This document shows, piece by piece, positions 116 to 64,000 of a stretch of 64,000 nt of DNA; within the stretch, counting starts at the first letter, position 1; every line of letters begins with the position of its first letter. The stretch is from Leucoraja ocellata (Eukaryota). Under the pieces are notes generated by a model, which worked only from the letters and a program-made list of their open reading frames with translations, ran no database searches and was not told the DNA's origin. Both the position numbers and the translations under genes were made by a program. The stretch spans positions 1,364,001 through 1,428,000 of the forward strand of contig JAWMAR010000243.1 in NCBI GenBank assembly GCA_036785375.1, written 5' to 3'.

Positions 116-850
116 AGAACAAGGCGGCAGATCATTATCTGAATGTTGACAGATTAGGAAACGGGGAGGTGCAACGAGACCTGGGTGTCCTTGTAACATC
201 AGTCACCGAAAGTAAGCATTCAAGTACAGCAGGCAGTGAAGAAAGAAAATGGCCCGTTGGCCTTCATAGCAAGAAGATTTGAGTACAGGAGCAAGGAGAT
301 CCTACTGCAGTTGTACAGGGCCCTGGTGAGACCACACCTGGAGTATTGTGTGCAGTTTTGGTCTCCTAATTTGAGGACGGGCATTCTTGCTATTGAGGGA
401 GTGCAGCGTAGGTTCACCAGGTTAATTCCCAGATGGCAGCACTGACATGATGAAAGAATGGATCGACTGGGCTTATATTCACTGGAATTCAGAAGGATGA
501 GAGGGGATCTTGTAGAAACATAAAATTCTTAAGGGATTGGACAGGCAAGATGCCGGAAAAATGTTCCTGATGTTGGGGGAGTCCAGAACCAGGGGTCACA
601 GTTTAAGAATAAGGGGTAGGCCATTTAGGACTGAGATGGGGGGGAAAAACCTTTTCACCCAGAGAGTTGTGAATTTGTGGAATTCTCTTCTGCCGTGGAG
701 GCCATTTCACTGGATGTTTTCAAGAGGGAGTTAGATATAGCTCTAACGGCTAAGGGAATCAAGGGATATGGGGAGAAGCAGGAACGGGGCACTGATTTTA
801 GATGATCAGCCATGATCATATTGAATGGTGGAGCTGGTTGGAAGGGCCGA
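116..850 (+). mobile_element. CR1-type LINE 3' fragment
   Basis: LYRALVRPHLEYCVQFWSP, EGVQRRFTRLIP, SRTRGHSLRIRG, FTQRVVNLWNSL. Confidence 0.9.
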
Positions 851-1064
851 AGAAGGGTCTCGACCCGAAACATACCCAATCCCTCTCTCCAAAGATGCTG
901 CCTGTCCCGCTGACTTACTGCAGCTTTTTGTGTCTATTCTGTTTCTATGTTTCACTCTGGGACAGGGGGTAGTGACACTCACTGGAGCTCTCCCGGGACA
1001 GTCTTAGTGACCTGCATGACTATGCTCAGCCTTCAGTACCCACACACCTACATAACACACATAC

Positions 1065-1179
1065 CTTTGTCTTCAGCGATGATTTGCACCAGTTGGTAAT
1101 CCTCAGGCCTGTCCCCATCCAAATTGTGTTTGGCCATGGCCTTTCGAATGACAACAGGCGTCTTATCTTGGCTTGTCAC
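1065..1179 (-). CDS. RALGDS: RALGDS exon 17 (115 nt) [38 protein letters not shown]
   Basis: RA-domain sequence; acceptor ttccag, donor G|GTATG. Confidence 0.95.
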
Positions 1180-1807
1180 CTGGAACAGAATTTTAACCCT
1201 TTAAAAGACCAGGCTTTGGTATTTATTACCCTATTATCCTTTCAGTAGTTTAAAAATATTTACCACATCCTCATCTCCCCTCACCTGTATGTCTCTACAC
1301 ATTATCTCCCATCCTCTCCATAGAATATCTACACCCATTAAGAATACATGTTCACATGGGCTTGCATCTCATGTTGGCTCTTGGAGCAGTGGTAATTGAG
1401 ATATATTGTCTTGGAGAAAGCACCACAACCAGAGCCACTTCCAAGTTGCAGCAACACTCATTAATTAGAGCCAAGGCAACACCAGGAACCGTGGATAATT
1501 TCCCTCCCCATTTCCTGGTGGCAGTGGCGTGGGGCTCAAAACGTAACCATGATAGTAGGGCAAGGCCAACTCTGGAATCTCAGTTAACTCAACCACGGCT
1601 GGTAATCCGAGTGCAAAACCAAGGCAGAAATTGTGACTTGACCAAGACTGAGGGAGACATCAATATAGATTTTATTTAAACAGTGGTCCTATCAACAATG
1701 CTTGAGGAATGCCACCATTCACCTCTCCCTGCGTCAAAAACAACCATTTACTACCACCCTCGATTGTCATAGTATAAATGTTGAGGCACAGCAATGAAAC
1801 AGGCCCT

Positions 1808-2112
1808 TAACACAGAAAAATAGGTGCAGAAGTAGGCCATTCGGCCCTTCGAGCCTGCACCGCCATTCAATATGATCATGGCTGATCACCCAACTCGGTA
1901 TCCTGTACCTGCCTTCTCTCCATACCCCCTGATACCTTTAGCCACAAGGGTCACATCTAACTCCCTCTTAAATATAGCCAATGAACTGGCCTCAACTACC
2001 TTCTGTGGCAGAGAATTCCAGAGATTCACCACTCTCTGTGTGAAAAATGTTTTTCTCATCTTGGTCCTAAAAGATTTCCCCCTTATCCTTAAACTGTGAC
2101 CCCTTGACCTGG
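1808..2112 (-). mobile_element. CR1 LINE 3' end
   Basis: RGHSLRIRG...FFTQRVVNLWNSLPQ plus conserved 3'UTR hairpin. Confidence 0.9.
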
Positions 2113-2762
2113 CCCACTCGGTCCTCATTGTCCATGAAGCATCCATTGACATTAATCCCATTTTTATTATTTTCACCTTCCCATTAACAATGCACATTTT
2201 CTACCACTCATCCATCTGCTGCTACAGTCATTTTCACATGTCAACTAACCTACTGACCAGTATGTGTTTAGGATATGGGAGGAATCTGCAGAACCTGGAA
2301 GAAACCCACGCAGTCACAGAGAGTATGTCTAAACTCCAAACAGACAGCAGCCAAGGTGAGGATTAAACCAAGGTCACTGGAGCTGTGAGACAGCAATTCA
2401 GCTTGCTGTGCTACTGTGCCACCTTAGCATATGGGAACCCTGCTCTCCTTCAAAATAGTAGTGCCAAGAATTTTCATATATGCCTTAGTGGGTGAGATAG
2501 TGGACGTGGAGTGAGTTTTAAAAAGATATGAACTCGGAGCAACAAACAAAATGTTGGAGGAATTCAGTGGGTCGAGCAGCATCTGTGGATGGAAAAGCAT
2601 TGTTGCTTTGTTTGTTGCTCCAGGTTCCAGCACCAACGGTCTCTTCCGTCTTGAAAGATACACACTTGTTGCCCAGAGGAATGTGAGGCAGTTTTGCTTA
2701 GACCAATCCAATGTTTGCCATCTCCTGCTCCCCATCTCACCCAAGACCCGAGCAATGAACTA

Positions 2763-3047
<285 letters not shown>

Positions 3048-4470
3048 CTAAAAGAAAATAAAATATGGGAAAAAAAAGGTTTACCATTGGGACAAGACTG
3101 GTACCACCAGTGCCCAGTCTGGCCCAGCTTGGAATGTTGTACCTGCCAGTTAAAAGCTGGTACTTCCAAAGTTCAGTAAAAAAAAACTAAAGGTGAGGTG
3201 CTGAGTCAGTTCTGAAGAGGTTTGCAGAATACATCCTCTTGTAAGCCCAGCATTGCCACCATCACCCTCATGTGTTCCCAACACCAGCGCCAAGCTCAAT
3301 TCACGTCTACCTACCTCACAACCACAAATTTCATTTGCACAGCACCTTCAATGCATCAAGATGCACTGGCATACAAAATGATTCTTTCATTCACAATATG
3401 GATGTTGAACAATAAGGTGATGAACAAGCATCTTACAAGTGGATGGAGCAGGGGAATTTCCACACTGGGCGTCTTGGCGGCTGAAAGCCCTGTCACACAC
3501 TATGAAGGGATTAACATCAGCAGTGCTCAAGAGGCTCAAATAGGAGGAACATCAATATCTCATTGGGTCGTGGGGCTGAGGAGATCACAATTGGTGAGGC
3601 CTAGGGTGAAGGTCTATAACAATATGGCTTTTCCAAAGATATTAATTTGCTTAATAATGCAAGTGTGTGGAAAGTTGCGAATGTCGGATTCCTTTTGTAA
3701 ACCATGGGAGGGAATGTGGAACACTTTGGGCTTCAGGGACATCATGGAGTAAACATTCATCGGGGATCCAATAGGGATGTTTCAGGATGGGAAGATTCCC
3801 AACTCCAGGCTCTTTGAACAGCTCAACAAATTGTCTCTCCATCTCCCTACTCCAGAAGCCTGCCTTTGGCCAGTCAATATGCCCGCTAATGGCAGGTAAT
3901 ACCTTCCAGGGATAACCACAAGGTAAACAGACACACGGTGACTCTGGACTATCAATTAACTAGCCGTTCTTTGCTCAACTCCAGCATGTTTATAGCAAAG
4001 AGATAGAGCCGTTGAGTTGTATCTCCTGATAATTTGCAGGATTTTACTTTGGTCCGGGATATTAATTTTCCCATCCCGGGAGACTTCAGGATAATCTGGG
4101 AGATTTAAAAACCCCAGTGGTCGGGCGAGCCAACACTTTTAACTGGGGTTTGGGGTGGGGAGGAATGTGGAATGGATACATCTTGGGAGAGGAATGGAGA
4201 GAAGGCAGTGATCACCCTAGGGTTAGAATCTACAACTAGTCACAAACAGTTGAGCTCATTCTAGCACCTCTACTGCTGCCATCATAATTAGGGTGGGTCA
4301 TACCCACTTCAGGCTTCTTTAGTGACAGACTGTTGCGTTACACAAGGCTCTCCATGGAGTCTAGGCTTGTCCCATTTTACTGGGCTAATGGGCTGATGAC
4401 AGTCGGCCTCTGGCACTGGACATCAGAGTTAAAGAACAATTTGTTTTGTGTTTGCACAATCATTCCCTAC

Positions 4471-4669
4471 CTTCTTCTCCTGGGAATCTGGTGACTCGGA
4501 GATGAAGCTGATGTTGATTTCTTCCACGTCAGAGTTGCTGGAGCCGGCAGATGTGACACTGACTGAGTCTCCTGCATCGCCACCGCCCAGGTAGGGCCCG
4601 TACTTGAGCTGCTCGCAGGATCGGGACTGGGCGCCTGTACATGGAGCATCTGCGCCTGGCGTACTCCTG
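4471..4669 (-). CDS. RALGDS: RALGDS exon 15 (199 nt) RSTPGADAP...SDVEEINISFISESPDSQEKK
   Basis: SAGSS.SDVEEINISF motif; CAGCAG (NAGNAG) acceptor; AAG|GTAGG donor. Confidence 0.92.
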
Positions 4670-5459
4670 CTGCAATCGTCGATGGGATGGAAGGAAGAAG
4701 GTGTTAACAAACTGGATAGTCCAATGATAGACCTCATGTTGGACTGAGCAGACACCTCATTGGGTCATCAGCAGCCCCCATTACTCTCCCCACATTTTAT
4801 TTCCATTGATATCTGTCCTGAGCTCAGCACATTGATGCAATGGTAAAGGAAATCTACCAACACCTCTACTTCCCTAGAACATTGATTTGGAATGTCAACA
4901 AATACTCTCTTGAACTTCAACAGGTGTGCGGTAGAGAGCTTACTGGCAGATAGCATGGCCTGATATGGTTATTAATTGATTGAATTGTTTAATATGTATT
5001 ATGAGTATTATGTTCACAGACTTGTTGTGCTGTTGCAAGTAAGAAATTCATTGTTCTGTTGTCAGTATGACAATTCAACACACCTGACTCTTGGCTATCA
5101 ATGTCAATATGAATCAGGCTATCAACTCACTTCCAAGTTCAGAGTCAAGTGTGTTTAATTGTTATATGTACCGATAATGTTTCTACACGGCCACCCAATG
5201 TGACAGTCATGGCGGGGCACAGCAATGTAACCATTCTGGCCTTTCCCACCTTTGCTCAAGTGTCAAGTGCGGTTAATTGTCATATGTACCTGAACAGAAC
5301 AAAGAAACCCGTACTTGCAGCAGTATAACAGGCCTGTAAACACGGCACTCAATAGTCCTCCACCTAGCCCCAGGATTGCCCAGGCCAAATGTCACAATCC
5401 CCTCTCTACCTTTACATTCAATGCACATCTGTCTAACCACAGTGGCAAAGGACACTCAC

Positions 5460-5555
5460 TCGCTCCACCGCTTGATGATGCCTGTGTTCTTCTTTGCCTT
5501 CAGAGTGTTGCTCGCAGATTCTGCCAGAGGCTCAATTTCACAGGACAGGTTGTAA
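5460..5555 (-). CDS. RALGDS: RALGDS exon 14 (96 nt) YNLSCEIEPLAESASNTLKAKKNTGIIKRWS
   Basis: Conserved translation; GA|GTGAGT donor. Confidence 0.94.
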
Positions 5556-5907
5556 CTGGAATTATAAGAAGATTAAAACAGTTAACAAAATCAAGACAGG
5601 GCATGATTTTCCAGCACCTCTCCCCACCTAGCGTTCTTTATTCAAATCCCAGCCAGGTTTTCCCCAGTCACTGGCTCTCTGATCTCACTGGGATAGGGTA
5701 GTGTACTCGCACCACCTGCTCAGATAAAAACAGATCCATGTCCGTCATTGAGATTGATTTCACGAAAGCTTGTGTTGGGCAGATGTGTCTGTGAAAGTGT
5801 GAGCCCCGAGCAGGTACATAGGCTCTTGCCCTGGCTCTCTCCTCTCTGACAACACTGCCGACCGACCCATGCCCAACCCTTCAACAGCAGCACAAGCGTC
5901 CCCTCAC

Positions 5908-6029
5908 CTTTCCGCCTCCGTCAGCCTCCCCACGCTGCGAAACCACTCCACAAACCGATGGTCCGGTGTAAATGAGTAGTTATTGCAGGCAGACTGCAGC
6001 AGCTTGATCTGGGCAATCACTTCGAACTC
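5908..6029 (-). CDS. RALGDS: RALGDS exon 13 (122 nt) EFEVIAQIKLLQSACNNYSFTPDHRFVEWFRSVGRLTEAES
   Basis: Conserved translation; TAG acceptor, AG|GTGAG donor. Confidence 0.95.
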
Positions 6030-6828
6030 CTAGCAGAGAAAACATTCGCCAGTGTTAGTGGAGCTTGCAGAAAAATACACCCACATTTCCTGCCTTCCAT
6101 AGCATACTGGTCCATCATATCAGTTCCAGTCCTCAGTATCCCATATGAACCATACAGAGGTGGCAACCAAAGCAGATGCCTGTGTACCACAACTCCCAAT
6201 TCACATTGTGCGGTGGGCGTTCCAAATGCTGCCAGCAATGTTACAGTATTGTGTGTAATATGAACATCCCACCAAGGTCCAGTGAAATACAATGGCAGCG
6301 CCCATACTAACTATTAGCTTCTATCTGCTTCCAAATGGAGTGGCTATCAGCTTGTCTCTGAAGGCAAGCAGTAAGCCAAGCCTGTGAATGGGCACACTGC
6401 CTTTACACAGAATCATTTATAAGACACATTAAAAAAAAATGTTCTTTGCCCAAATGCAAATGCCACTGGTCATGCCAGTATGTTGTGCCCATCCCCAACT
6501 GACCCATCGGCCATTGAATAAATGGTCCCTCGGGAATACCCTGTAACTGAATTAAAGCAACCCAGGTGTATTGGTGGGATTCAGTGTTGTTGCCGGGCCT
6601 CTGGACACAGACCGAGTAATTTAAACTAAGTAATGGGATAGAGGGGAGAGGAGTGGTGGTGGGTTTTCAGCGCCAGGTGATATATGGCGGTCCAGCTGGG
6701 ATTTGACCTCTCCCTGGGAGTCAGCACAGTGGCTCCTTCATGAGGAGCTCATGCTCCGAGCTGTGGAGGTAAATGTTCATTTATAAACCCATGGCCCTCA
6801 ATAATGAAACAAGCCTGAAATGTCTTAC

Positions 6829-6861
6829 CTTTCTCCTCTTTTCAAAGTTGATCAGACCGCC
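6829..6861 (-). CDS. RALGDS: RALGDS exon 12 (33 nt) GGLINFEKRRK
   Basis: LINFEKRRK motif; acceptor cacag, donor AAG|GTAAG. Confidence 0.94.
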
Positions 6862-7450
6862 CTGTGAAGTGGAAAGGAACAGATTAATAACCTGAATTAT
6901 TACATTTCCTCTCCCCACACACTCGCTCTCCCCCCTTCCCTCTTCTGGGGAGCAGGTAGAGGCATCAGACACTTGCTGGCATCGCACTGTACAACAGTAC
7001 AAGGTCTACTGCGGTACACAAACTGGCACTGACCATTACAGGTCCTGAAGGAACTGCTGGTGAGACTTGTGGATAATTACTTCACACGTTTAGCTGGCAC
7101 ATAAACAGAGGAGACACAAGGACCTGGAATCTTGTGGAGAACACAAAGTACTGGATTAACTCAGCGGGTCAGGCGGCATCCCTGGAGGACATGGTGTGAA
7201 GGGTCCACCTAAAACATCGCCTGTCCATGTCCTCCATAGACACTGCCTGCCCACTGAGTTATTTTACCACTTTGCGTTTTACATAAACAAAGACGTGGAC
7301 ACATTTAACTACTTAGTTACTTACACCAGTGGAGAACACATTCGTCACCATATTCCAATATCACAAGCCGTGTTTCCCCACACTAAACCCATTTGCTACA
7401 TACATTGAATGCTCCATTTGTAAACAGATTCTAGGATAATTCTCACTTAC

Positions 7451-7537
7451 GTCTAAATGATCTTTCACCGCAGTGTCCAACATAACCAGGTCAGTGAGAA
7501 AGGTTCCCAAGTAAGGGATTGTACCCTGCATGACACC
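7451..7537 (-). CDS. RALGDS: RALGDS exon 11 (87 nt) GVMQGTIPYLGTFLTDLVMLDTAVKDHLD
   Basis: PYLG.FLTDL RasGEF motif; preceded by a 97-nt intron. Confidence 0.96.
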
Positions 7538-7634
7538 CTGGAGAAACACAGAAGGCATTTGTATTACTGATTAAGGACAGCCATTAGAATAAATGACTTG
7601 TGTGGCATCAAATAGATCTCTGGAGCAAACCTAC

Positions 7635-7712
7635 CAACTCCTTTTGTTGCTGCTGCCTTTTCTGAGCCCGTTTTGGATTGAGGTCAAGTGTAGCAAACTT
7701 TGAGGTCCCTTC
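7635..7712 (-). CDS. RALGDS: RALGDS exon 10 (78 nt) EGTSKFATLDLNPKRAQKRQQQQKEL
   Basis: EGTSKFATL motif; GT-AG. Confidence 0.93.
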
Positions 7713-9886
7713 CTGGAATTACAGAATATGAAAATAAAGGAGACATACACACAATGAGCACCTTACGAACAGGTCAAAGAATGCATGTGTGTTATTTAAA
7801 CTTCAGTGTAAAATGGTATTAAGTGCTAAACCTTGCCTTTCCAGTAGGTGGCAGCACCCATGCAAAACAAGGGTTTGGGATTTTAGATTCAGGTTAGTAA
7901 TATACACAAAGAAATTCCTCATTCACATAGAGTGCATGGTGTACATGATAATAATAGATAACAATAAATACAATGAAGGATGCAAAACAGCAGAGGTGTC
8001 TAAAGTTGTAGTGCAATTTGAAGTAGCGGAGAAAAAATACTAAAGTAAATTATGGAATAATCAAATATTCTAAAAAAAGTCTAAAAACAGGGTCTCTACC
8101 CAAAATGTCACCCATTCCTTCTCTCCAGAGATGCTGCTTCACCCACTGAATTGCTCCAGCATTTTGTGTCTACCTATGGAATAATCAAGTTGAGTTTAAG
8201 AGGACATCGCGCAGCACCTCTGGGACGGGGGTGTGAAGAAGTGATTGGTTCATGAGTCTGAAAGCTGTGGGGATGAAGCTGTCCTTAAATCTGGGCTTTC
8301 AAGCTCCAGTTACTTCTCTCAAAAGGTAGAAGAGAGAAAAGCCGGGGTGACAGACGTGATTGGTGAGACTCAGCCTTCCTGAGGCATCACACCGTGAAGA
8401 TGGAAGGAAGAAGGAAAAGACAAGTCTGCGATGGACTGTGCTATGTTTACGTCCTCTGCAGGTTCAGGTGATCAAGAGCTGAGCAGCTGCCACAACAGGC
8501 TGTGATGCATCTTGCCAGAATACTTTAAAGAGAGCGAACAAGCTCAGGACATTGAGACATGCTAAGATTCTTTTTCTGAAGTGGGTCATTGGAGTACAAT
8601 TGTACAAAACACAATCCTACAAACCTGCTAATGACCAGCCTGTTTTTGTTGGTGGTGTTGAGTGAGGGCTGGCTATTGCTTGGGGCCACTAGGGATAACT
8701 TCCCTATGGAGGGTGAAGCAACGCTTCAGTTTTGCCCATTTATTTTGTTTCTCGTCCTTCAGATGCTGCCTGACTTCATGCTTCCAGCGTTTTCTGCAGC
8801 CTCAACCTTGGATTCTGTTCATCTCCATTCTACCCATTGGCTGGCCTCCTCCATCCTGATTGAAAATGGTTTCCCTTCCAGTGCTGCTCAAAGAGTGCCA
8901 GGGCGGTTCCAAGTGATTCACTCACCCAGTGATTCAGACACGGCAGCTGAACAACCCACACTATGAAGACATTGCAAGTTACTGTAAGAGAAGCTAATTA
9001 AGAGCGATGATTGTGGGTTGCCGGGGGTAGAACGGAAACTAAGAGCCGGTCACGGACTGTTTCTAAAGAGTACTGTGGTGACAACTTTCCCTTAGTCAAG
9101 TCACTGTGGGTTCGCTACACATTGGCCTCGGGTGGAAACTCTCCTGCTGCTGGCAAAAGTCATTTCAAAACTTATTGACTGACCTATCAGCTTGGTGAAG
9201 AAAGCAGTGTCTTCTGCAAGAACACAGTGACTGGTCCGTAAAAGCAGTTATTTACAGATTATACATACAACCACATCCTGCCATCATTGCATCTACTTCA
9301 TGCCTAAAAACGTTGCCCCCACTGTTGCTTCCCAGAATGTGCACTTTAACCACACACTGCAGATCTTATACAATAGCTTCACCGAGCAGCTTTGATAAGG
9401 CTTTCTGCAAGTTACTATTGGTGTTAAAAGTGCAGAATGCTCTTATTATTCTTTTTCTATCAGTTGCTTTCGCTTTAAGCCTTGTTAAGTTCAACAACAA
9501 TGAAAGCTTGTTTTTCCATTGTGCCTTTCACAATAACCTCCCAAACTTCCTCGCAACAGAATGGCTCAAAGAGGCACATTTCGTGGAGGGGAGAGAGGTG
9601 GAGAGGATCAGAGAGAGAGAAATGCAAAGGTTGAGGCCTGCACAGCCCACAATAGTGGAGGCTCGAGCTGGAATTTGGGAAGAGTATTTTGGGAGCCTGT
9701 ATTTTGTAGAGGTCGGGCCGTAGAAGGATATTAGTATAGGCAGTTGGCCTCAAAAAAATACCTTCACATGCCTTGGACTGTTTCAACAGACAGTATAATA
9801 AAGAGGGATGATAAAAACAGACATTGCTGAAAGCACTCAGCGGGTCAGGCAGCAGTTGTGGAAAGAGAACGAGAGTTCGTGTTTCA

Positions 9887-22519: not shown

Positions 22520-23031
22520 CCTAACTGGCCTGATGGGCACCCGAAAAAGGGACCACATCACCCCGATCTTGGCCTCTCTCCACTGGCTCCCTGTGCGGTT
22601 CCGTATACATTTCAAGACCCTCCTCTATGTTTACAAAGCCCTCAATGGGCTTGCCCCCCTCCTACATTAAAAGTCTTCTCACCCACCACTCCACCTCCAG
22701 GTCCCTCAGATCGGCCGAACTGGGGCTGCTGAATATCCCGCGGTCTAGGCATAAGCTTAGGGGCGACCGCGCCTTTGCGGTTGCAGCCCCTAGACTGTGG
22801 AACAGCATCCCCCTTCCCATCAGAACTGCCCCCTCCATCGACTCCTTTAAGTCACGACTAAAAACATATCTATACTCCTAAGCCTTTCCCGACGTCCACT
22901 GAGCGAGGGCTATATGTATATATGTATGTAGTTTGTTTGTTTATACTATTCTTATAACAAATGTAAAGCACTTTGGCCAACGAGAGTTGTTTTTTAAATG
23001 TGCTATATAAATAAATGTGACTTGACTTGAC
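22520..23031 (+). mobile_element. L2-clade LINE 3' end
   Basis: DHITPILASLHWLPVRFRIHFK...RGDRAFAVAAPRLWNSIP...FKSRLKTYLY (one frameshift); 3'UTR ending AATAAA and (GACTT)n. Confidence 0.88.
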
Positions 23032-23258
23032 CCTAGTCCTGGCCACATCCTCACACGCAACCTCAGCGCTCCTTCCACACACAGGTGTGACAGAAATGCA
23101 AATGTATCGCTTGTTCTTCTACACCTTTGTCTTTAATGATGACTCAAAGCAATTATTTTGAATGTTGTTGATAATAACCATGAGCGGGTTACTGGTGGGA
23201 ACTGGCGGAGTTGAGGGGTGGTCCCGGCACTGTGGGATTTTGGTAGTGATGTACTTAC

Positions 23259-55686: not shown

Positions 55687-57959
55687 GTTAAGGAAGTTCG
55701 ACAATGTAAGTGGTGCTGCCTTTCAGAAGGCAATCTCTCCCTACTGCCTCTGAGCTTGCATGCTTCTTCCTAAAAGGGTCGCTTCATCTTGGCTATAAAT
55801 TCCATTATACACCTTTCCCTTTTTTTCTATGACCCACAGCGTTTAGAAATGTGAATTTGGGGTCACTTTGGCAGGACATACCTATTTTATTTTGATAAAC
55901 TGAACCCTGGCCTCCTCCTGCAGTGCATAAATCCTCCGCACAAAACCTGTATTAAATGGAATTCCCCAAAAAGTTTGAGTTAAATTGGGTTTTTTATTTG
56001 AAATGCTGTACCAATTATAATTGCCATGGGCCATTTCAGCAAAAGCATTAATGGGTAATTCCCAGGAAATTCCAGGGAGATGAGTTTCCAGATCTCTCGT
56101 CATGTTTTGTTGGAAAATGAACTTCCTCTGTTGTGCAGAGAAATAGGACAACTTACAGCATAACAAAAGGGAAAGTTGACTTTCCGCTCTTCGTGGCCCT
56201 TCCCGCTCAACAACCCCTGTTCTTTCCTCTGATCCTGCGTTGAATTTTACTTTTTAGACTCTATATCCAATTTCCATTTCAATTTTACAATTACTTTTAT
56301 TTCCACCACCCTCTGGGACATTTTATCCAGCTCACCAATTTACATGCCAAAAAAAAAAAAATCCTGAGACTTTTGCCAGGTTTCCAAAATCTAAGGCTCC
56401 TGGAAAGAATTTCTCCATTCTACTCTATCAAATCAACTTGTATTTTTTTTTTAAACAAAATCTCTTATTAACCATCTTTGCTCTATACTACCTAATAACC
56501 CAGACTTCAATTAAACATCAGATTTAAATCCTGTGATAAAAAAAATTGAGGGCCTGGCCAATATGTTCTCTTTGATCACCATCATTCATCATTGGGAGCT
56601 TTCTATGTGCATTGATTTTCCAGTTTCACAGTTTCTCATGGTAACTCTACTTCATAAGCAATGTATGTGTTTGTTATTGTCTCGTGTACCAAGATACGGT
56701 GAAAAACTTTGATTTACACGTTTGCTAGACAAGTCATACCAAGTATGAGTACAATAAACCATCATCCATACATGCGTTCTCTAGGCTAGTGCAGAATGTA
56801 GTGTTACAGCTGCAGGAAAAATCACCCCCCAAAATGTGCAAGGACTGCAATGAGCTAGATTGGGAGACCAGGAATACATCCTTAGCTTATGCGAGGTCAG
56901 TTCAATAGTCCTGATAAGCGCTGAGCTTTGATATTCAGGGGGGGGGGGGCTGAAATGCATGTAAACACAAGTCCTTTCTTGATTTTTCCTCTAATACACC
57001 AACATATGTCCCAGAGGAATTCTTGAGAAATATCTTGTGGAAATCCATTTCCAGAGAATTGGCCTTTATTGTTTAGAGCTCGGCAATGTGGTCCACCTTC
57101 TTTCAAAAATACACCAACATTACGAGGGGAAGGGGAGGGCAAGCAGACATCCTGATCCCATCCATTCTTCTGAAAGGAATATGGGTTGTGGATATTTAAA
57201 TACCTACGTCCCCTTCCTACTAGAAATTCAAAAAGGTCCTAAAATGGACAGAAATTAAACCTAAAATCATCACCTATCCATATTCATCTTTGGATCCTTT
57301 GCATCCACTTTAAAGACAGAGAAAAGATCAGTGCAGCCTCTCGTGCGTAAGAAACTTAAGTTACCTACAATGCTGCCCTGGCAGCATCATCAATATAGAT
57401 TTTCTTCTCAAATGATTCAATTGTAGCTTAACCCCCAGGTATCCATCCGATTCAGGAGCAAGTGCACTAATAACTGACAGATGGTCAACACTTGGCTAAC
57501 AGAGGTGAGCCTGAAGTAAAACAATCAGCTCCATCCTAGCCACATGCTCCACTATGCTTGCTTTCCACCCCTTCTCTCCTCAGATGCCCTGCCTCCTTGG
57601 ATTGTGGACTAAAGGAACATCCGTTCTCACCTTTCAGGGTGGAATTAATATTCATTAGTGGTAATGAGAAAATGAACAAAGGATTGGGCTGATCAGATAA
57701 GTAGATTTTGTTTCACAAATAGCACAATCTTCTAGGCTGTGTAATCCCCACCCCAAAATATGTTTGACAATTTTCATTCCAAATTAGGAAGTTCCTGATC
57801 TAGGTCCACTGTGCATCAAATTTTTCATTTGTTTTCTAAAATAAATTATTAATTCTCTCTGATCTGCCTTTCTCCATTCATTTCAGGTACTTTCGGAACG
57901 CTGCTGAATTCATACGATGGCAATAGGCGGGCTGGAAAACAAAGCAGCACAGACCAAAG

Positions 57960-58430
57960 GCCGTATTTTGAGTGCATAATGACTGGTTGCAACACGGCCT
58001 GTTCTGGCAACTCGAATGCCCAAGAACAAAGGAGACTGCAAAAAGTGGTGGGCACTGCCCAGTACATCACCGATACTGACCTCCCCACCATCAAAGGGAT
58101 CTGCAGAAGTCGCCGCCTCACAAAAGAAGCCAGCATCATCAGAGACCCACACCACCCTCATTTCATTCCTGCCATTGGGAAGAACGTATAGGAGCCGGAA
58201 AACTGTAACATCCAGGTTCTGGAGCAACTTTGTCTTATAACAATCAGGCTATTAAACACTACAACCTCCAAATAAGCTCCGAACTGCAGGGGGCACTGTT
58301 TTGATCCGTTTGTATTATTTGTTGTCTATTATTGTGTGTACAGAGTACTGTGGTCACATATCTGTTGTGCTGCTGCAAGTAAGAATTCCATTGTTCAGTT
58401 GTCTGATCAAATGATAATAAAGCATCCTTG
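57960..58430 (+). mobile_element. Rex/Babar LINE 3' fragment
   Basis: GNSNAQEQRRLQKVVGTAQYIT.TDLPTI...KEASIIRDPHHP; similar pieces at about 4800-5100, 8200-8580, 37690-37975. Confidence 0.7.
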
Positions 58431-59077
58431 GGTTCTTGATTGCACCCTTACCCAGCATTTCCAGTTGAGCGTGTTGGCATTAACGCGGCTTAATCAGCAG
58501 GATACTGACTTCTGAGGCTTCAAGTGGCAGTTGTACAATCTCACAGAGAGAGCACTGTGTTTCTGCAGGTGTTTGGGTGAAAGGCACTCATGGCACTGAA
58601 ACGACGTTACCATCATCAACTCGCTTCCTGGTTAACATATGGACGGAACTGTAAATAAAGTCGAGCAGCCAGCTGCATTTTCAGTTGCTGTTTGTTGGTC
58701 TTTATTCTGAACTAACAGTCCCCCACAATGATTCTCTCTCACAACAGCATTCAATGTTTTTTTTTAAAAGGCTGCATTGGCTGTGAGATTTTATGTACAG
58801 GTAACATTGTGCATTTAATGCTGCAAATAAACTCCAAGGTATTTCAACAGGGTTTTCTCAAATTAAAGCTCCATCAGGAGATATTATTAGGACGGTAGCC
58901 CAAAAGCTTCATCGTCAAGAGAGTTTGTTAAGAAGCTTCTCAAATCCAGACAGAGACAGAGTGGTAGCGAGAATTCCAGAGTTTCTGCAGCAATTAAATC
59001 CAGGGAGCAAACAGGAAGTAAGAATTGGAGGAGTGGTGAAATCTGGGAGTTGGAAGATGTAGAGACAAAGGGAAGCG

Positions 59078-59080
<3 letters not shown>

Positions 59081-59109
<29 letters not shown>
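59081..59109 (+). repeat. poly-G run (29 nt)
   Basis: Direct read; shorter G runs at about 35000 and 48902. Confidence 0.8.
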
Positions 59110-59426
59110 TCATATCCTGAAGGGATTTGGAAAGAGTAATGAGATGTTTAAATGCTGTTGCATTGTTTAACTGGGAACAATGGTGGGTCAGTGAGCACGG
59201 GGGGGCCCTAATAATTCCGACTTCAATTAAAAATCAGAGTTAAACACTGTAATTGAATTAACAGCTATTGACTCAGTTAATAGAAAGGGGAGTGAGGAGT
59301 GAAGAATCGAAGGACTTATTGGACTTCTTTCTCTGCAACACAATTCCGTACCCTACATCTCGGCTGTAGTTTGGATGAGAAATGACTTCAGCATTTTCCA
59401 AACACTCTTATGAATTCTAAAAGATA

Positions 59427-60576
59427 CTAGACTAAGTGGGACCCGTTGGGTCCCTGTCACACGGGAGGCCCGTTCCCCCAACTCAATATTCCACCACTCA
59501 CGCCTATCCACCCCCCCTCCATCAAATCCACCCTTCCCTGTCCCCCTCTCCCTTCTACCCCCCTCCCTCCCCCCTGCACTCCTCAACCCCTCTACCCCAC
59601 ACGCTCCCGCTCTTTCCCGCCTCCCTCCCTCCCTCTCTTCCCCCCTTTCCTCCCCCCCCTCTCTCCCTCATCTCTCTCTCCCCTCCGTCCTCCCTCCCCC
59701 CCCAAGCTGTGGGCCGGGCTACAGCGTTCCCCTCTCCATGTAATGTTGTGGTGCATTAAGGCCGCTCCCGGTGACCACACCCACGGGCAGGAGCCGCTGG
59801 AGTGCTGCCCATCCCGGGACCCACGGTGTCCCTCGCCAACGGGTAGACAGCGGGGCTCGGTGCTGCCCCACCCCCCCACCATTCTCCCTCTACCACCCTA
59901 TCTCCCTCCTCCCCATTTCCCTCATCCTCCTCCTCCCCTCACTCCAATTCCCTGCCCCCAGCATCTACTCAGGTGGCAGAGCAGCGCCAGGGCCTGGAAA
60001 CTCGGCCTGGTCCTCGTACTCGGCCCGACCCTGGCTGTTGGCGGCTGAAGCACTCGAGGGCCTGGGCCTTGACGGAGCCGGGCTCGCTGTGCCGGGGGCG
60101 GGGTGAGTGCGGCGGGCGGCAGAGCTAGAGTTGCCCGCAGAGCAGGAAGCAGAGGCTGTGCACCAGGATGATGGTGGCCGGGCAGCTCCCGAGGCACTGG
60201 TACACCATGACCAGGCCCCGGGGTTGGGCACGACTCCGGCCCTCAGCTCGGCCGCTGCCTGGGATGCAGTCCATGCCCCGACAGCGGCCAATCAGTGCGG
60301 CGATGGTGCCAGGAACAGGAGACTGACAGGAGAGGAGACCAATCTGCGTGGCAGTGACTGACAGCAATCTGCGCATGCGTGATTTTTAGGATTTATAAAC
60401 ATTAATAACTTTAACAATATTCCATCGATCGGAATGAAACTTGTTGCACTTGCAGCACGGGCAAACGGTGAGTACGCCGGTGAAACATCGGAACGCTATC
60501 ATGTACCATTTTCGCGCAAATAGAAAATCCGCGCAAACTGGTAGAGCACAAGATCAGAGTTTTAGTTATGTATAGA
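59427..60576 (-). mobile_element. Non-autonomous Helitron
   Basis: On the minus strand it starts TC (TCTATACATAACTAAAAC) and ends CTAG. A perfect 7-bp GC hairpin GGGACCC-n3-GGGTCCC (59438-59454) lies 7 nt inside the CTAG. Inserted in an A|T dinucleotide with no TSD. Confidence 0.85.
59967..60230 (-). pseudogene. Degraded coding fragment inside the Helitron, SAC3/GANP-domain (SAC3D1-like)
   Basis: Strong GC3 codon bias; reads MVYQCLGSCPATIILVHSLCFLLCGQL*LC...EPGSVKAQALECFS.../AEYEDQAEF/QALALLCHL with one stop and about two frameshifts; resembles recalled SAC3D1 motifs. Confidence 0.55.
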
Positions 60577-61119
60577 TTTTCTTTTAAATTACAATTTTTT
60601 TTCTCTGAAGATTATACACGGCTTATTTATTTCCATTAAACGTGGTACTGGCTGTCTCCAACACAGCTTGGTTTCTGTAGTTTAGTGTCACTTTCCTCAT
60701 TGAACTGCCTTAGCAGGAGCTGATGCACACACCATCTGACTATGACAAGCCAAATTTGGGACTGATGCCAGCAGGAACGTGATCAACAGCTGAAGTTCAT
60801 TGCCGGGAAATCTCGTCAGGACCAGAACACTGATCTCATTCGAGAAGCAGCTCAATGCTATATCAGGGCAAGAGTAGAGTTGGCATTCTGGAAGAATGAA
60901 ATAAAATTGACTGACAACCCTGCTTCATCCAAACATCTTGTGTGATTTCAGCCAAGTGAGACAATGGAAAATGCTCAGTCTTTCTGCAATTATTTTTCTT
61001 GAACCCTGTTCAAGTGGTGACGTGATTTCACAAAATCTCAGCTCCTCATCAGAGTCAAGTAATGAGTATGTATAGCTGGTTGTTAAACTGTCCTACACTT
61101 CATTCGTCAAATTCTGTCA

Positions 61120-61335
61120 GGTCAAGTCAAGTCACTTTTATTTCTATAGCACATTTACAAAACAACTCTCGTTGGCCAAAGTGCGTTACATTGGTGGAGG
61201 TACTAACGTTATACAACAGTGGTTCATGGATGAATTCCATAAATACATACATATATCCCTCACTCAGAGGACGTGAAGACAGGCTTGAGAGTAAAGATGA
61301 GTTTTTAGTCTCGACTTAAAGGAGTTGATGGAGGT
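61120..61335 (-). mobile_element. Second L2 3' end of the same family
   Basis: (AAGTC)n tail; ACAACTCTCGTTGGCCAAAGTGC is the reverse complement of 22968-22990. Confidence 0.8.
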
Positions 61336-61759
61336 GGTGATGGCGACAAAGCTGAAGGATCATGAAAGTTTACAGCACAGGGTGGCCACTTACACTCTTG
61401 TGACTGCTTTTTCCAAAGAGGTTGGTCACACCTCCCTTTTTGCATCCATGTCTGTCTGCTCCTTATACTCTGGTTCTAACTTTTCCAGTCAAAATTAATT
61501 GCCAAGTTGTTCGTTGAGGAGAGAAGGTATGAATGGGTAAATGGTTCCCTCTTCAATCACCAGGCATTGCTCATACCATAGTTGAGATGTCATTGTGGAC
61601 AAGGCCAAAAATGGCTGTTCCAGGGAGAGAAATGGTTTTTTTTTCCACTTCATGGCATCACGCAGTCAGTACGGACTCGGCTGCTCACTGTACATTCCAT
61701 TCCATTTTGCATTCAGCAGACAGATCATAAGCTACATAAGCAGGAGTTGGCCAGTCAGC

Positions 61760-62125
61760 TCCTCGCACCTGCTCCGCCAATCAATTATATCATCGCTGAT
61801 CTTTTGCGTCAGTGCCACTTTCTTGCCCTTTGATACCCTCAATGTCCCAAAATCTATCGACCTTTTGGTTTGCATCCTCAGCAGCTGAGCCTCCACAGTC
61901 TACTTGGGGTGAGAAATCCCCATACCCCTTAAGTGAACAAACTTCTTTGTGAGTTCAGAATGACCAACCCGATTTAAAGGCTGTGTTCTAGATACCCCGT
62001 TAGGTAAGCAGCATTCTGCATCTACCCTGTCAAACTTAAGAAGAATTTTGTATGTTTCAACGAGATCACCTCTCATTCTTCCAAGCTCTAGAAAATCTTC
62101 CTTGGACAACAAACCCATGCTATCA
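61760..62125 (-). mobile_element. Old CR1 fragment
   Basis: RMRGDLVETYKIL..FDRVDAE. Confidence 0.65.
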
Positions 62126-64000
62126 GGAATCTGTTTGATGAAGTATAACAGGAGAATGAATCAACACTACCCACATTAGCAACGATACACAAAATCATCT
62201 GCTAAACTTGGATTGTTCCCTGCAATAATGCCTAATACAGACAAGATCAGTGACAAATGATCACAGGAGCTTTGATTATGTACAACATCCTATTTCTGTG
62301 CACCTTATGAATCCACTTACTAATTGCCCTTAACTCATTTAAACGAGTCGACATGTCCAAGTATTAGAGATGGGAAGGGAAAATGTGGTTTGAAGAAGGG
62401 TTTCGGCCCGAAACGTTGCCCATTTCCTTCGCTCCATAGATGCTGCTGCACCCGCTGAGTTTCTCCAGCATTTTTGCGTACCTTCGATTTTCCAGCATCT
62501 GCAGTTCCTTCTTGAACAAAATGTATTCTTAGGTTGGTTCCCTTTGAACCCGCAGGGAACCCCTGATGAGTTAATTTGCTTACTCAGCAGAATTAGAGTT
62601 GAGTTGACCCCATACTTCCCAGCAAGGAATGGCTTCTGCTATCGTGCCCATTCATAGGCGAGGAGCCAAATGTTCCTGTAAGGTTATCGCAAGTATTATA
62701 TCACCAGTTCAGCATTTTCCTGTGGAGAGAATTTGTTGAATCTGACAAAGGGTCTTGACCTGAAACATTGTCCATTTCCCTCCACAGATACCGCTGGCCT
62801 GCTGAGCTATTTTAACTGCTCCTCAAGGTATGCCCACTTTGATGAGGTTCTCCTCCACTCCCTCACAAAGGTTCTGTGAGACCACCTTTCACAACCTCTG
62901 TGCACTCTAGCTTTATCCCCCTACAACAGTCTGAAGAAGGGTCCTGACCCAAAACATCGCCTATGCATGTTTCTTTAGAGATGCTGCCTGATCTGCTGAG
63001 TTACTCCAGCACCTTGTGCCTCTTTTTGTTAAACAAGCACCTGCCATGCCTTGTGTATCCTCCAACATTTTGCTTTTTACACTGCTGGTAATGTTAGGTT
63101 TAGTCCTGTCCGGAAGATCACTTTGTTGCTGTCTCTCATCCAACTGATATTCTGGTCTTTATTACCATGCTCAGATGTGATATCTTGGTTGTGGACAATA
63201 ATTATTACTGTATTTCTTACATTACAATAGTTTACCATACTTCAAAACACTCAGCAAGCTCTAAAGTGCCCAGGGCTCTTCTGAGATCATTGTATTTTTT
63301 ATATATACTCTGCACGTTATAACTGAACTCAATGTCATTGGTACAAATGTAATACAAATGAACTGCAGATGCTGGTTTATATCAACGCTAGACACAAAAT
63401 GCTGGAACAACTCAATGGGTCAGGCAGCAACTCTGAAGAATATGGAAAGGTCGGGACCCTTCTTCAGACTATCAGGACCCCTTTCCACTATTCATCTAGA
63501 GTTGCTGCCTGACCCATCTGTGCTTGCTCCAGCCATCTTTGTATCTGTCATTGGTATATATATGAGTTTACTTGGGGATTGGGAGGAACAGGAATGATAA
63601 ATTATGAAACCTTCATGGCAAAATGACCTGTAGACACTGCCGACTCAGTGTGTGATGAATACAAGTGGGACAGGGTCAGTAGTGATGCACTTTCACAGAA
63701 GTTCCCAACTTTAAAGGAGCAAGAGATAAAGCCAAATGAAGGCTGAGGGAGCAGACAGCCGGCGGGGGAGGGTGAAGGGATATCTGTTTGTTTTCCTCAA
63801 ACAGGCTCAAGCAGCAGCCCCACCCGTCAGCACATTGCTGGTTTCCTGTGAAACTATTTCATTTTGCACTCGCTGAGATTTCCAGCTAATGAGCAACAAT
63901 TAGCAATTTCAGGTGAAACCCAAAGTGCTTGCAGCAACTGTTAATTACTTAACACTGCTAATAAGCAAGACAGAAATGTGGCAAATGGCAGAAATTATTT

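Follow-up and report, generated by a model that had tools for sequence, protein, structure and literature searches.

A Helitron1-type element in a skate genome that carries a broken SAC3D1 fragment, likely captured from genomic DNA

A 64-kb stretch of the Leucoraja ocellata genome (64,000 nucleotides, here called the window) holds on its minus strand a short element with the ends of a rolling-circle transposon and, inside these ends, a piece of coding sequence that resembles a host gene. The locus thereby raises the question of what the element is, from which gene its cargo came and by which route the two were joined. The answer that we hold with considerable confidence is that of a 1,150-bp element with Helitron1-type ends and a broken SAC3D1 fragment, the latter likely taken from genomic DNA by rolling-circle run-through and the whole likely moved by a transposase encoded elsewhere. 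The main parts are as follows, with depth given as summed contig depth, which is not the same as copy number.

59427..60576, minus strand: non-autonomous element of Helitron1 type, 1,150 bp long and bordered on this strand by A (60577) and T (59426)
60283..60576, minus strand: 5′ module starting with TC, high copy; depth 10,900-144,000 in bins 60326-60646 versus 12-56 in flank bins
59970..60282, minus strand: captured piece of SAC3D1 coding sequence, in sense with the element; it leads from a linker repeat of skate type into the SAC3/GANP domain as far as ...YDL and is broken by three frameshifts, one stop and two deletions
59520..59896, minus strand: low-copy GC-rich stretch, partly of low complexity; depth drops to 6-140 in 59577-59790; no Pfam match
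59427..59520, minus strand: 3′ module with hairpin and terminal CTAG, common to a much larger family; depth 336,000-899,000 in bin 59363-59469

Both ends can be read directly from the minus strand, where A|TC at 60576 is the start and CTAG|T at 59427 is the end of the element. The 5′ TC lies at 60576-60575, with loose contig ends behind 60577. The CTAG terminus (59430-59427) is preceded by a hairpin at 59438-59454 with a perfect 7-bp GC-rich stem and a 3-nt loop, which ends 11 nt before the last base, i.e., the CTRR terminus and subterminal hairpin of Helitron1 (HLE1). By folding energy alone the hairpin does not stand out (z -1.40), and 14 of 200 shuffles give an equally good fold. When both strands of the 64-kb window are considered, CTRR-T behind a perfect GC-rich stem of at least 6 bp occurs twice, and the combination with a 7-bp stem is found solely at the element's own 3′ end. 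No direct repeat, and hence no sign of a target-site duplication, was found between the element flanks. The A|T insertion is seen at this copy, and the largest contig-end pile-ups retain the flanking base at both ends. The first-pass annotation, which had described a minus-strand 5′-TC, a 3′ hairpin with CTAG, an A|T insertion and the lack of a target-site duplication, is borne out on each of these points by direct reading, by the pile-ups at both boundaries and by flanks that share no direct repeat. Helitron2 or Helentron (HLE2), with its short terminal inverted repeats and T|T target, was rejected, as the target is A|T and none of the 25 longest inverted pairs lies at the termini. Within the 64-kb window, blastn revealed no second copy of the element, and a Pfam scan of 140 of the 181 window ORFs of at least 75 aa found no host gene, transposase or Rep/Helicase; an Rfam scan of 57000-64000 gave no match. 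Terminal structure and dispersed copies together support the assignment of the ends to the Helitron1 type.

The evidence for dispersed copies comes from contigs of seven public runs from seven organisms, 20 of the 24 listed runs containing part of the region; no RNA data set is listed as containing it, from which nothing follows about expression. Ends and flanks were compared in runs X1, X3, X5 and X10, and cargo sites in runs X5, X13, X16 and X18. In the first four, depth is approximately 12-56 in the flank bins (two bins being 0), 15,000-144,000 in the 5′-end bin and 336,000-899,000 in the 3′-end bin. Loose ends accumulate at 59426 (119-164 contigs per run in four runs) and at 60577 (53-82 contigs in the three runs giving that position), and the flanks at both boundaries are unrelated and AT-rich, with a flank agreement of about 0.4. 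Because loose ends pile up there with unrelated flanks, A|TC and CTAG|T can be taken as boundaries of the family in general, the 5′ and 3′ ends of which were observed separately and not as entire copies. The family thus has dispersed members that share their ends but differ in their surroundings, another characteristic of Helitron1 (HLE1). Loose-end piles at 59418 and 59424 were rejected as alternative boundaries and are read instead as AT-rich flank that probably continues to the next G or C.

The insertion in the window can be read as common to the four organisms compared. Unique flank contigs enter the element in all four runs, by 24-28 bases at the 5′ end and by 41 (X10) and 21 (X3) bases at the 3′ end, the 31-base bridging rule being satisfied by the X10 left junction only and the remaining flank contigs running 21-28 bases inside. 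No empty site was seen in the best 15 of 84 joints of the four runs, with flanks compared for organisms A-D. Contig joints also connect 60566-60574 to 59424-59427 and hence fuse the 5′-end region straight to a 3′ end, as in tandem or nested elements; the precise CTAG|TC junction is absent from the best 12 of 150 joint rows. The flank consensus behind 60577 starts with AGATAGA in three runs, which hints that many copies lie in or beside GATA repeats.

The identity of the cargo follows from a comparison with proteins. A read-through of the cargo, with X at two breaks, has one match among 20 candidates, the SAC3D1-like protein of Rhinoraja longicauda (E 1.5e-19). This parent protein matches PF03399 (4.7e-69) over residues 176-393, covering the matched stretch. 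In a frameshift-aware alignment of 60282-59970, the cargo corresponds to residues 164-283 of the Rhinoraja protein (P0002) and 166-285 of the Amblyraja protein (P0005), with 71 and 72 of 99 residues identical, respectively. SAC3D1 orthologues were found in skates, rays and sharks, and alignment scores are 253-263 for skates, 93-143 for rays, 64-77 for sharks and 29-50 for eight shuffles. No direct Pfam match to PF03399 was found on the cargo, neither in its four frames nor in the read-through (P0001), and the identification therefore rests on the skate protein. A search for a short skate exon or for cargo ORFs found none among 133 candidates. On sequence comparison, the derivation of the cargo from SAC3D1 can be regarded as confirmed.

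The first-pass annotation had proposed a SAC3D1-like host fragment with strong GC3 codon bias at 59967-60230. The skate SAC3D1 match, with a score of 263 against 29-50 for shuffles, upholds the gene; the quoted peptides are present and, in the aligned frames, G or C is the third base of 74 of the 79 codons. SAC3D1 sequence does lie within the proposed interval, but its true extent is longer (60282-59970). The expected protein likeness holds for the alignment with skate SAC3D1, which is significant, but not for a direct Pfam SAC3/GANP match on the cargo.

With regard to the donor lineage, the linker repeat of the cargo occurs, among the aligned sequences, elsewhere in skate proteins only. The skate SAC3D1 proteins XP_078252027.1, XP_032902980.1 and XP_055514366.1 share this skate-type linker and the indels, with approximately 72% identity to the cargo over 99 aligned residues. 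A tree of 12 rows groups the cargo with batoids (100/100) on a long branch and does not separate skate from ray, so the assignment to skates rests on the scores and indels. Compared to skate SAC3D1 (SAC3/GANP, PF03399), the cargo covers about a quarter of the protein and has frameshifts, a stop and two deletions; it is not a gene. The skate proteins (P0002, P0005 and P0015) contain an AEPG repeat insert of about 100 residues that ray and shark proteins do not have. The Rhinoraja SAC3D1-like models (P0002-P0004) lie on records of 32.8 Mb and 6.6 kb and differ in their linker repeats, indicating a duplicate or a haplotig.

The place where the cargo ends is informative on the type of nucleic acid that was captured. 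Two further features adjoin it:

59963..59969, minus strand: likely splice donor that closes the exon; most copies have G|GTAGGT, whereas this one has a decayed A|GTAGAT
59897..59968, minus strand: purine-rich stretch behind the donor; depth 4,100-72,000 in bins 59897-59965, far above that of the exon

Homology of the cargo to SAC3D1 ends at L283, and the majority letters at 59969 and 59964 give G|GTAGGT in all four runs (X5, X13, X16 and X18). From 89 representative SAC3D1-like matches, the 61 that reach about the L283 point were examined. In the majority (41 of 61), the sequence beyond this point still has a BLAST match to the remainder of the skate protein. The other 20 have no BLAST match; seven of them are family-like by eye, two are unclear and 11 lose homology directly after YNLG. 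Seven of these 11 go on with E, as expected from a GGT-GAG donor. The seven of the 11 that were looked up are gene calls on contigs, and one of them clusters with a shrew SAC3D1. This pattern points to a conserved phase-1 intron, apparently seen via unspliced read-through of a G|GTGAG donor. The purine-rich stretch would be the start of the SAC3D1 intron, and 59520..59896 may be additional intron or filler. Because the match stops at the apparent intron position of vertebrate SAC3D1 and most copies have G|GTAGGT, SAC3D1 was likely captured from genomic DNA and not from mRNA. A contig of the parent SAC3D1 locus was not recognizable in the best 32 of 3,357 pieces.

A rolling-circle capture could have proceeded as follows. 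Replication would have begun in a skate ancestor from a Helitron 5′ end that lay upstream of the exon ending in YDLG, and the element's own terminator would have been missed. The remainder of the exon and the start of the intron would then have been copied until replication stopped at a hairpin-CTAG 3′ end of the standard kind, which in the simplest case would have belonged to a second family member downstream (chimeric end bypass). This is our preferred route, modestly favored among the DNA-level routes, and it was chosen because the 3′ end of the element is the standard high-copy one. Bat captures in which a second Helitron supplies the 3′ end offer a precedent for it (PMC4224331, available excerpts), and Helraiser is described as transducing flanking DNA when the hairpin is missed (PMC4778049, available excerpts). 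Internal deletions would have killed the reading frame early, after which the chimera would have reached at least tens of sites, mobilized in trans by a Rep/Helicase element. The copy in the window would have inserted before the split of the sampled species and would have decayed since. In this copy no remnant of the first element's 3′ end was found between the 5′ module and the cargo, and the junction of these two parts is rare (depth 8-121 at 60285).

The main rival keeps the same Helitron and the same cargo, but explains the SAC3D1 DNA as filler, introduced when a break within an already present element was repaired by template switching to the gene, instead of by read-through. We consider this possible, though not probable. 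The internal position of the cargo between two high-depth modules would fit it, as would the lack of a leftover internal 3′ end in this copy and the contigs that join 59950-59962 to 60286-60324 across the exon. Such joints are, however, equally explained as deletions, given that the skips are nested (62-335 bp) and that depth climbs to the 3′ end of the exon. Moreover, a sense orientation and a cargo of exon plus donor form the pattern of bat and Xenopus captures in the published excerpts, although this pattern is not diagnostic.

The fate of the cargo can be traced from lesions that are either shared by copies or private to this one:

60125..60127, minus strand: stop codon at a Trp position, absent from most copies; 35-46 contigs per run carry the majority letter at 60126
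60037..60044, minus strand: frameshifting deletion of approximately 11 bp as estimated from the parent protein, common to several copies
60206..60215, minus strand: deletion junction from linker to domain, with roughly 50-100 bp lost depending on the repeat aligned, common to several copies

The deletions near 60040 and 60209 are common to copies, since contigs cross them without gaps. This is the case at 60037..60044 for, e.g., X16 60001-60226 and X18 60001-60263, and at 60206..60215 for X16 60017-60237 and X18 60001-60263, the latter junction also being present at the N-terminus of protein P0018. An extra base near 59999, like the stop at 60126, is missing from most copies. The cargo is multicopy in all seven organisms compared. 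At each listed cargo site the majority letter is carried by 15-64 contigs (X5, X13, X16 and X18), and depth in the exon bins 60035-60264 is 265-7,800 versus 3-97 for the single long contigs listed; it is also raised in X1, X3 and X10. There are at minimum tens of cargo copies. The skipping joints form a nested series of deletion derivatives and, with depth increasing toward the exon's 3′ end, shorter derivatives holding just the exon end or an intron piece appear to have spread further. In each run, 11-14 contigs extend past 60282 into further linker-coding sequence, and this copy has therefore lost part of the cargo. Record 15 of X16 (3,212 bp) matches 60282-60044, departs at the shared deletion point and continues for approximately 2,960 bases, perhaps as an early or truncated copy.

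The differences between this copy and the others point to decay. Among 40 of 70 differences, 14 majority letters are non-synonymous; 12 of these give the parent residue, one favors the window and one neither. Compared to letters held by at least 30% of the depth, this copy differs at 57-63 of 661 sites, whereas the flanks differ by 0.5-4.5% between the window and the four runs. As the divergence of the copy exceeds that of its flanks, it fits an old, fixed and decaying insertion. The cargo is likely a dead passenger without protein function, which was probably non-coding before it spread, and this copy is probably junk.

Some cargo copies could nonetheless be functional, with a promoter-like 5′ module driving the exon and the donor splicing it to host exons, or with a regulatory RNA acting against SAC3D1. 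The 5′ module contains motifs at 60288, 60339, 60324, 60359 and 60371, which we take to be two CCAAT, two TGACAG and one NRF1-like putative promoter motifs. CpG observed/expected is 1.18 over 60283-60576 versus 0.35-0.37 in the flanks, and 60283-60400 may be a captured promoter, possibly that of SAC3D1 itself. In addition to these motifs upstream of the cargo, the donor is intact in most copies, and P0018 links cargo-type N-terminal residues to spliced SAC3D1. This protein, encoded on a contig of 1,029 bp within the Amblyraja/Leucoraja cluster, starts with residues that carry the cargo's deletion junction and derived changes, followed by a spliced, nearly intact SAC3D1. Its simplest reading is an assembly chimera, although it may be a real chimeric transcript, and it suggests that the cargo family is present in the Amblyraja/Leucoraja lineage. 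Function of any copy is nevertheless unlikely, as a frameshifting deletion is shared by copies, the donor has decayed in this copy and P0018 is a single contig that may be an assembly chimera. In a still wider reading, skates would be a second, bat-like vertebrate lineage of large-scale Helitron capture, with SAC3D1 promoter-exon-donor cassettes at hundreds of sites, some starting transcripts spliced into host exons or back onto SAC3D1, and P0018 perhaps recording such an event. We regard this as rather unlikely.

An origin of the cargo from mRNA, as a retroposed SAC3D1 piece inside or captured by a Helitron like bat HelibatN424, is very unlikely. Bat Helitrons with retrogene cargo are known (PMC4224331, available excerpts) and the fragment itself is intron-free, but it stops exactly at the presumed exon end and goes on with a donor-like GTAGGT, not with the next exon (SDQALHH); neither that exon, nor a poly-A tail, nor a duplication was found around the cargo. 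Finally, a locus that is no Helitron is highly improbable, be it a SAC3D1 pseudogene piece standing alone amid unrelated repeats or a transposon of another class whose ends look similar. In its favor, TC/CTRR signals are common and yield false positives (PMC11417382, available excerpts), there is no link to a transposase, and a weak inverted pair (14 nt, 79%) lies in the flanks. This pair, however, is outside the family boundaries and was rejected as a terminal inverted repeat, and of 84 inverted pairs the 25 longest include none at the termini. Moreover, dozens to more than 100 contigs with unrelated flanks break off exactly at the two ends, and the cargo is multicopy with shared lesions.

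As a Helitron with a run-through cargo, the skate element has several known counterparts, which are described here as far as the available excerpts of the sources go. In its ends it resembles Helitron1 (HLE1) and Helraiser by the 5′ TC, the hairpin 11 nt before the CTAG end, the A|T target in AT-rich DNA and the lack of terminal inverted repeats (PMC11417382; PMC4778049), and differs from them in a palindrome of 17 instead of 19 bp. The closest precedent is HelibatN3 (NUBPL) of vesper bats (PMC4224331). Like HelibatN217.1 (TMBIM4), it is a non-autonomous Helitron that holds a housekeeping-gene exon together with part of the intron behind it (PMC4224331), a layout that the skate element probably shares. 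The NUBPL cargo was amplified by transposition to about a thousand copies, which was followed by deletion derivatives (PMC4224331). Unlike the vesper-bat Helibats, the skate element has a cartilaginous fish as host and carries the 3′ part of a long coding exon; while TMBIM4 is in reverse orientation in HelibatN217.1 (PMC4224331), SAC3D1 is in the orientation of the element. Heli1Xen1 of Xenopus laevis is likewise a vertebrate Helitron1 with captured CDS pieces (PMC12001565). Its 64 insertions hold 19 such fragments, most of which are 5′ parts and lie in the element's orientation (PMC12001565). In this young family no fragment has more than 17 copies (PMC12001565), whereas the skate copy is old, approximately 9% from the common letters. 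The skate cargo also appears to be more widely amplified and is present in several species.

A report of Helitron gene capture in skates was not found in the literature, although Repbase, Dfam, subscription journals and genome-paper supplements may list such elements. The element is not described in the available text of the little skate genome paper (PMC10115646, with no use of the word "helitron"), the main text of the Rhinoraja preprint (10.1101/2025.06.08.657570), or the excerpts of the dogfish genome paper (PMC10468316) and of a survey of fish transposable elements (PMC6817897). The first-pass annotation had cited maize, bats and Lepidoptera as precedents, thereby missing the captures in Xenopus laevis (PMC12001565, available excerpts). 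Given the latter, skates add one more vertebrate lineage to a known process, for which bats and Xenopus were the documented vertebrate examples. The skate element is well suited to tests of capture models, having a single known parent gene and a break at what is probably a conserved intron, and the shared and private lesions and the deletion series over several sequenced species are of the same value. In practice, annotation, the mapping of reads and the assembly of transcripts in skates can be misled by the dozens of degenerate SAC3D1 pieces.

Two minor observations concern the surroundings of the element. The left flank contains a long uninterrupted G run at 59079-59109. On the other side, approximately 61075-61395 of the window is another very high-copy repeat, which is 77% like 22829-23032.
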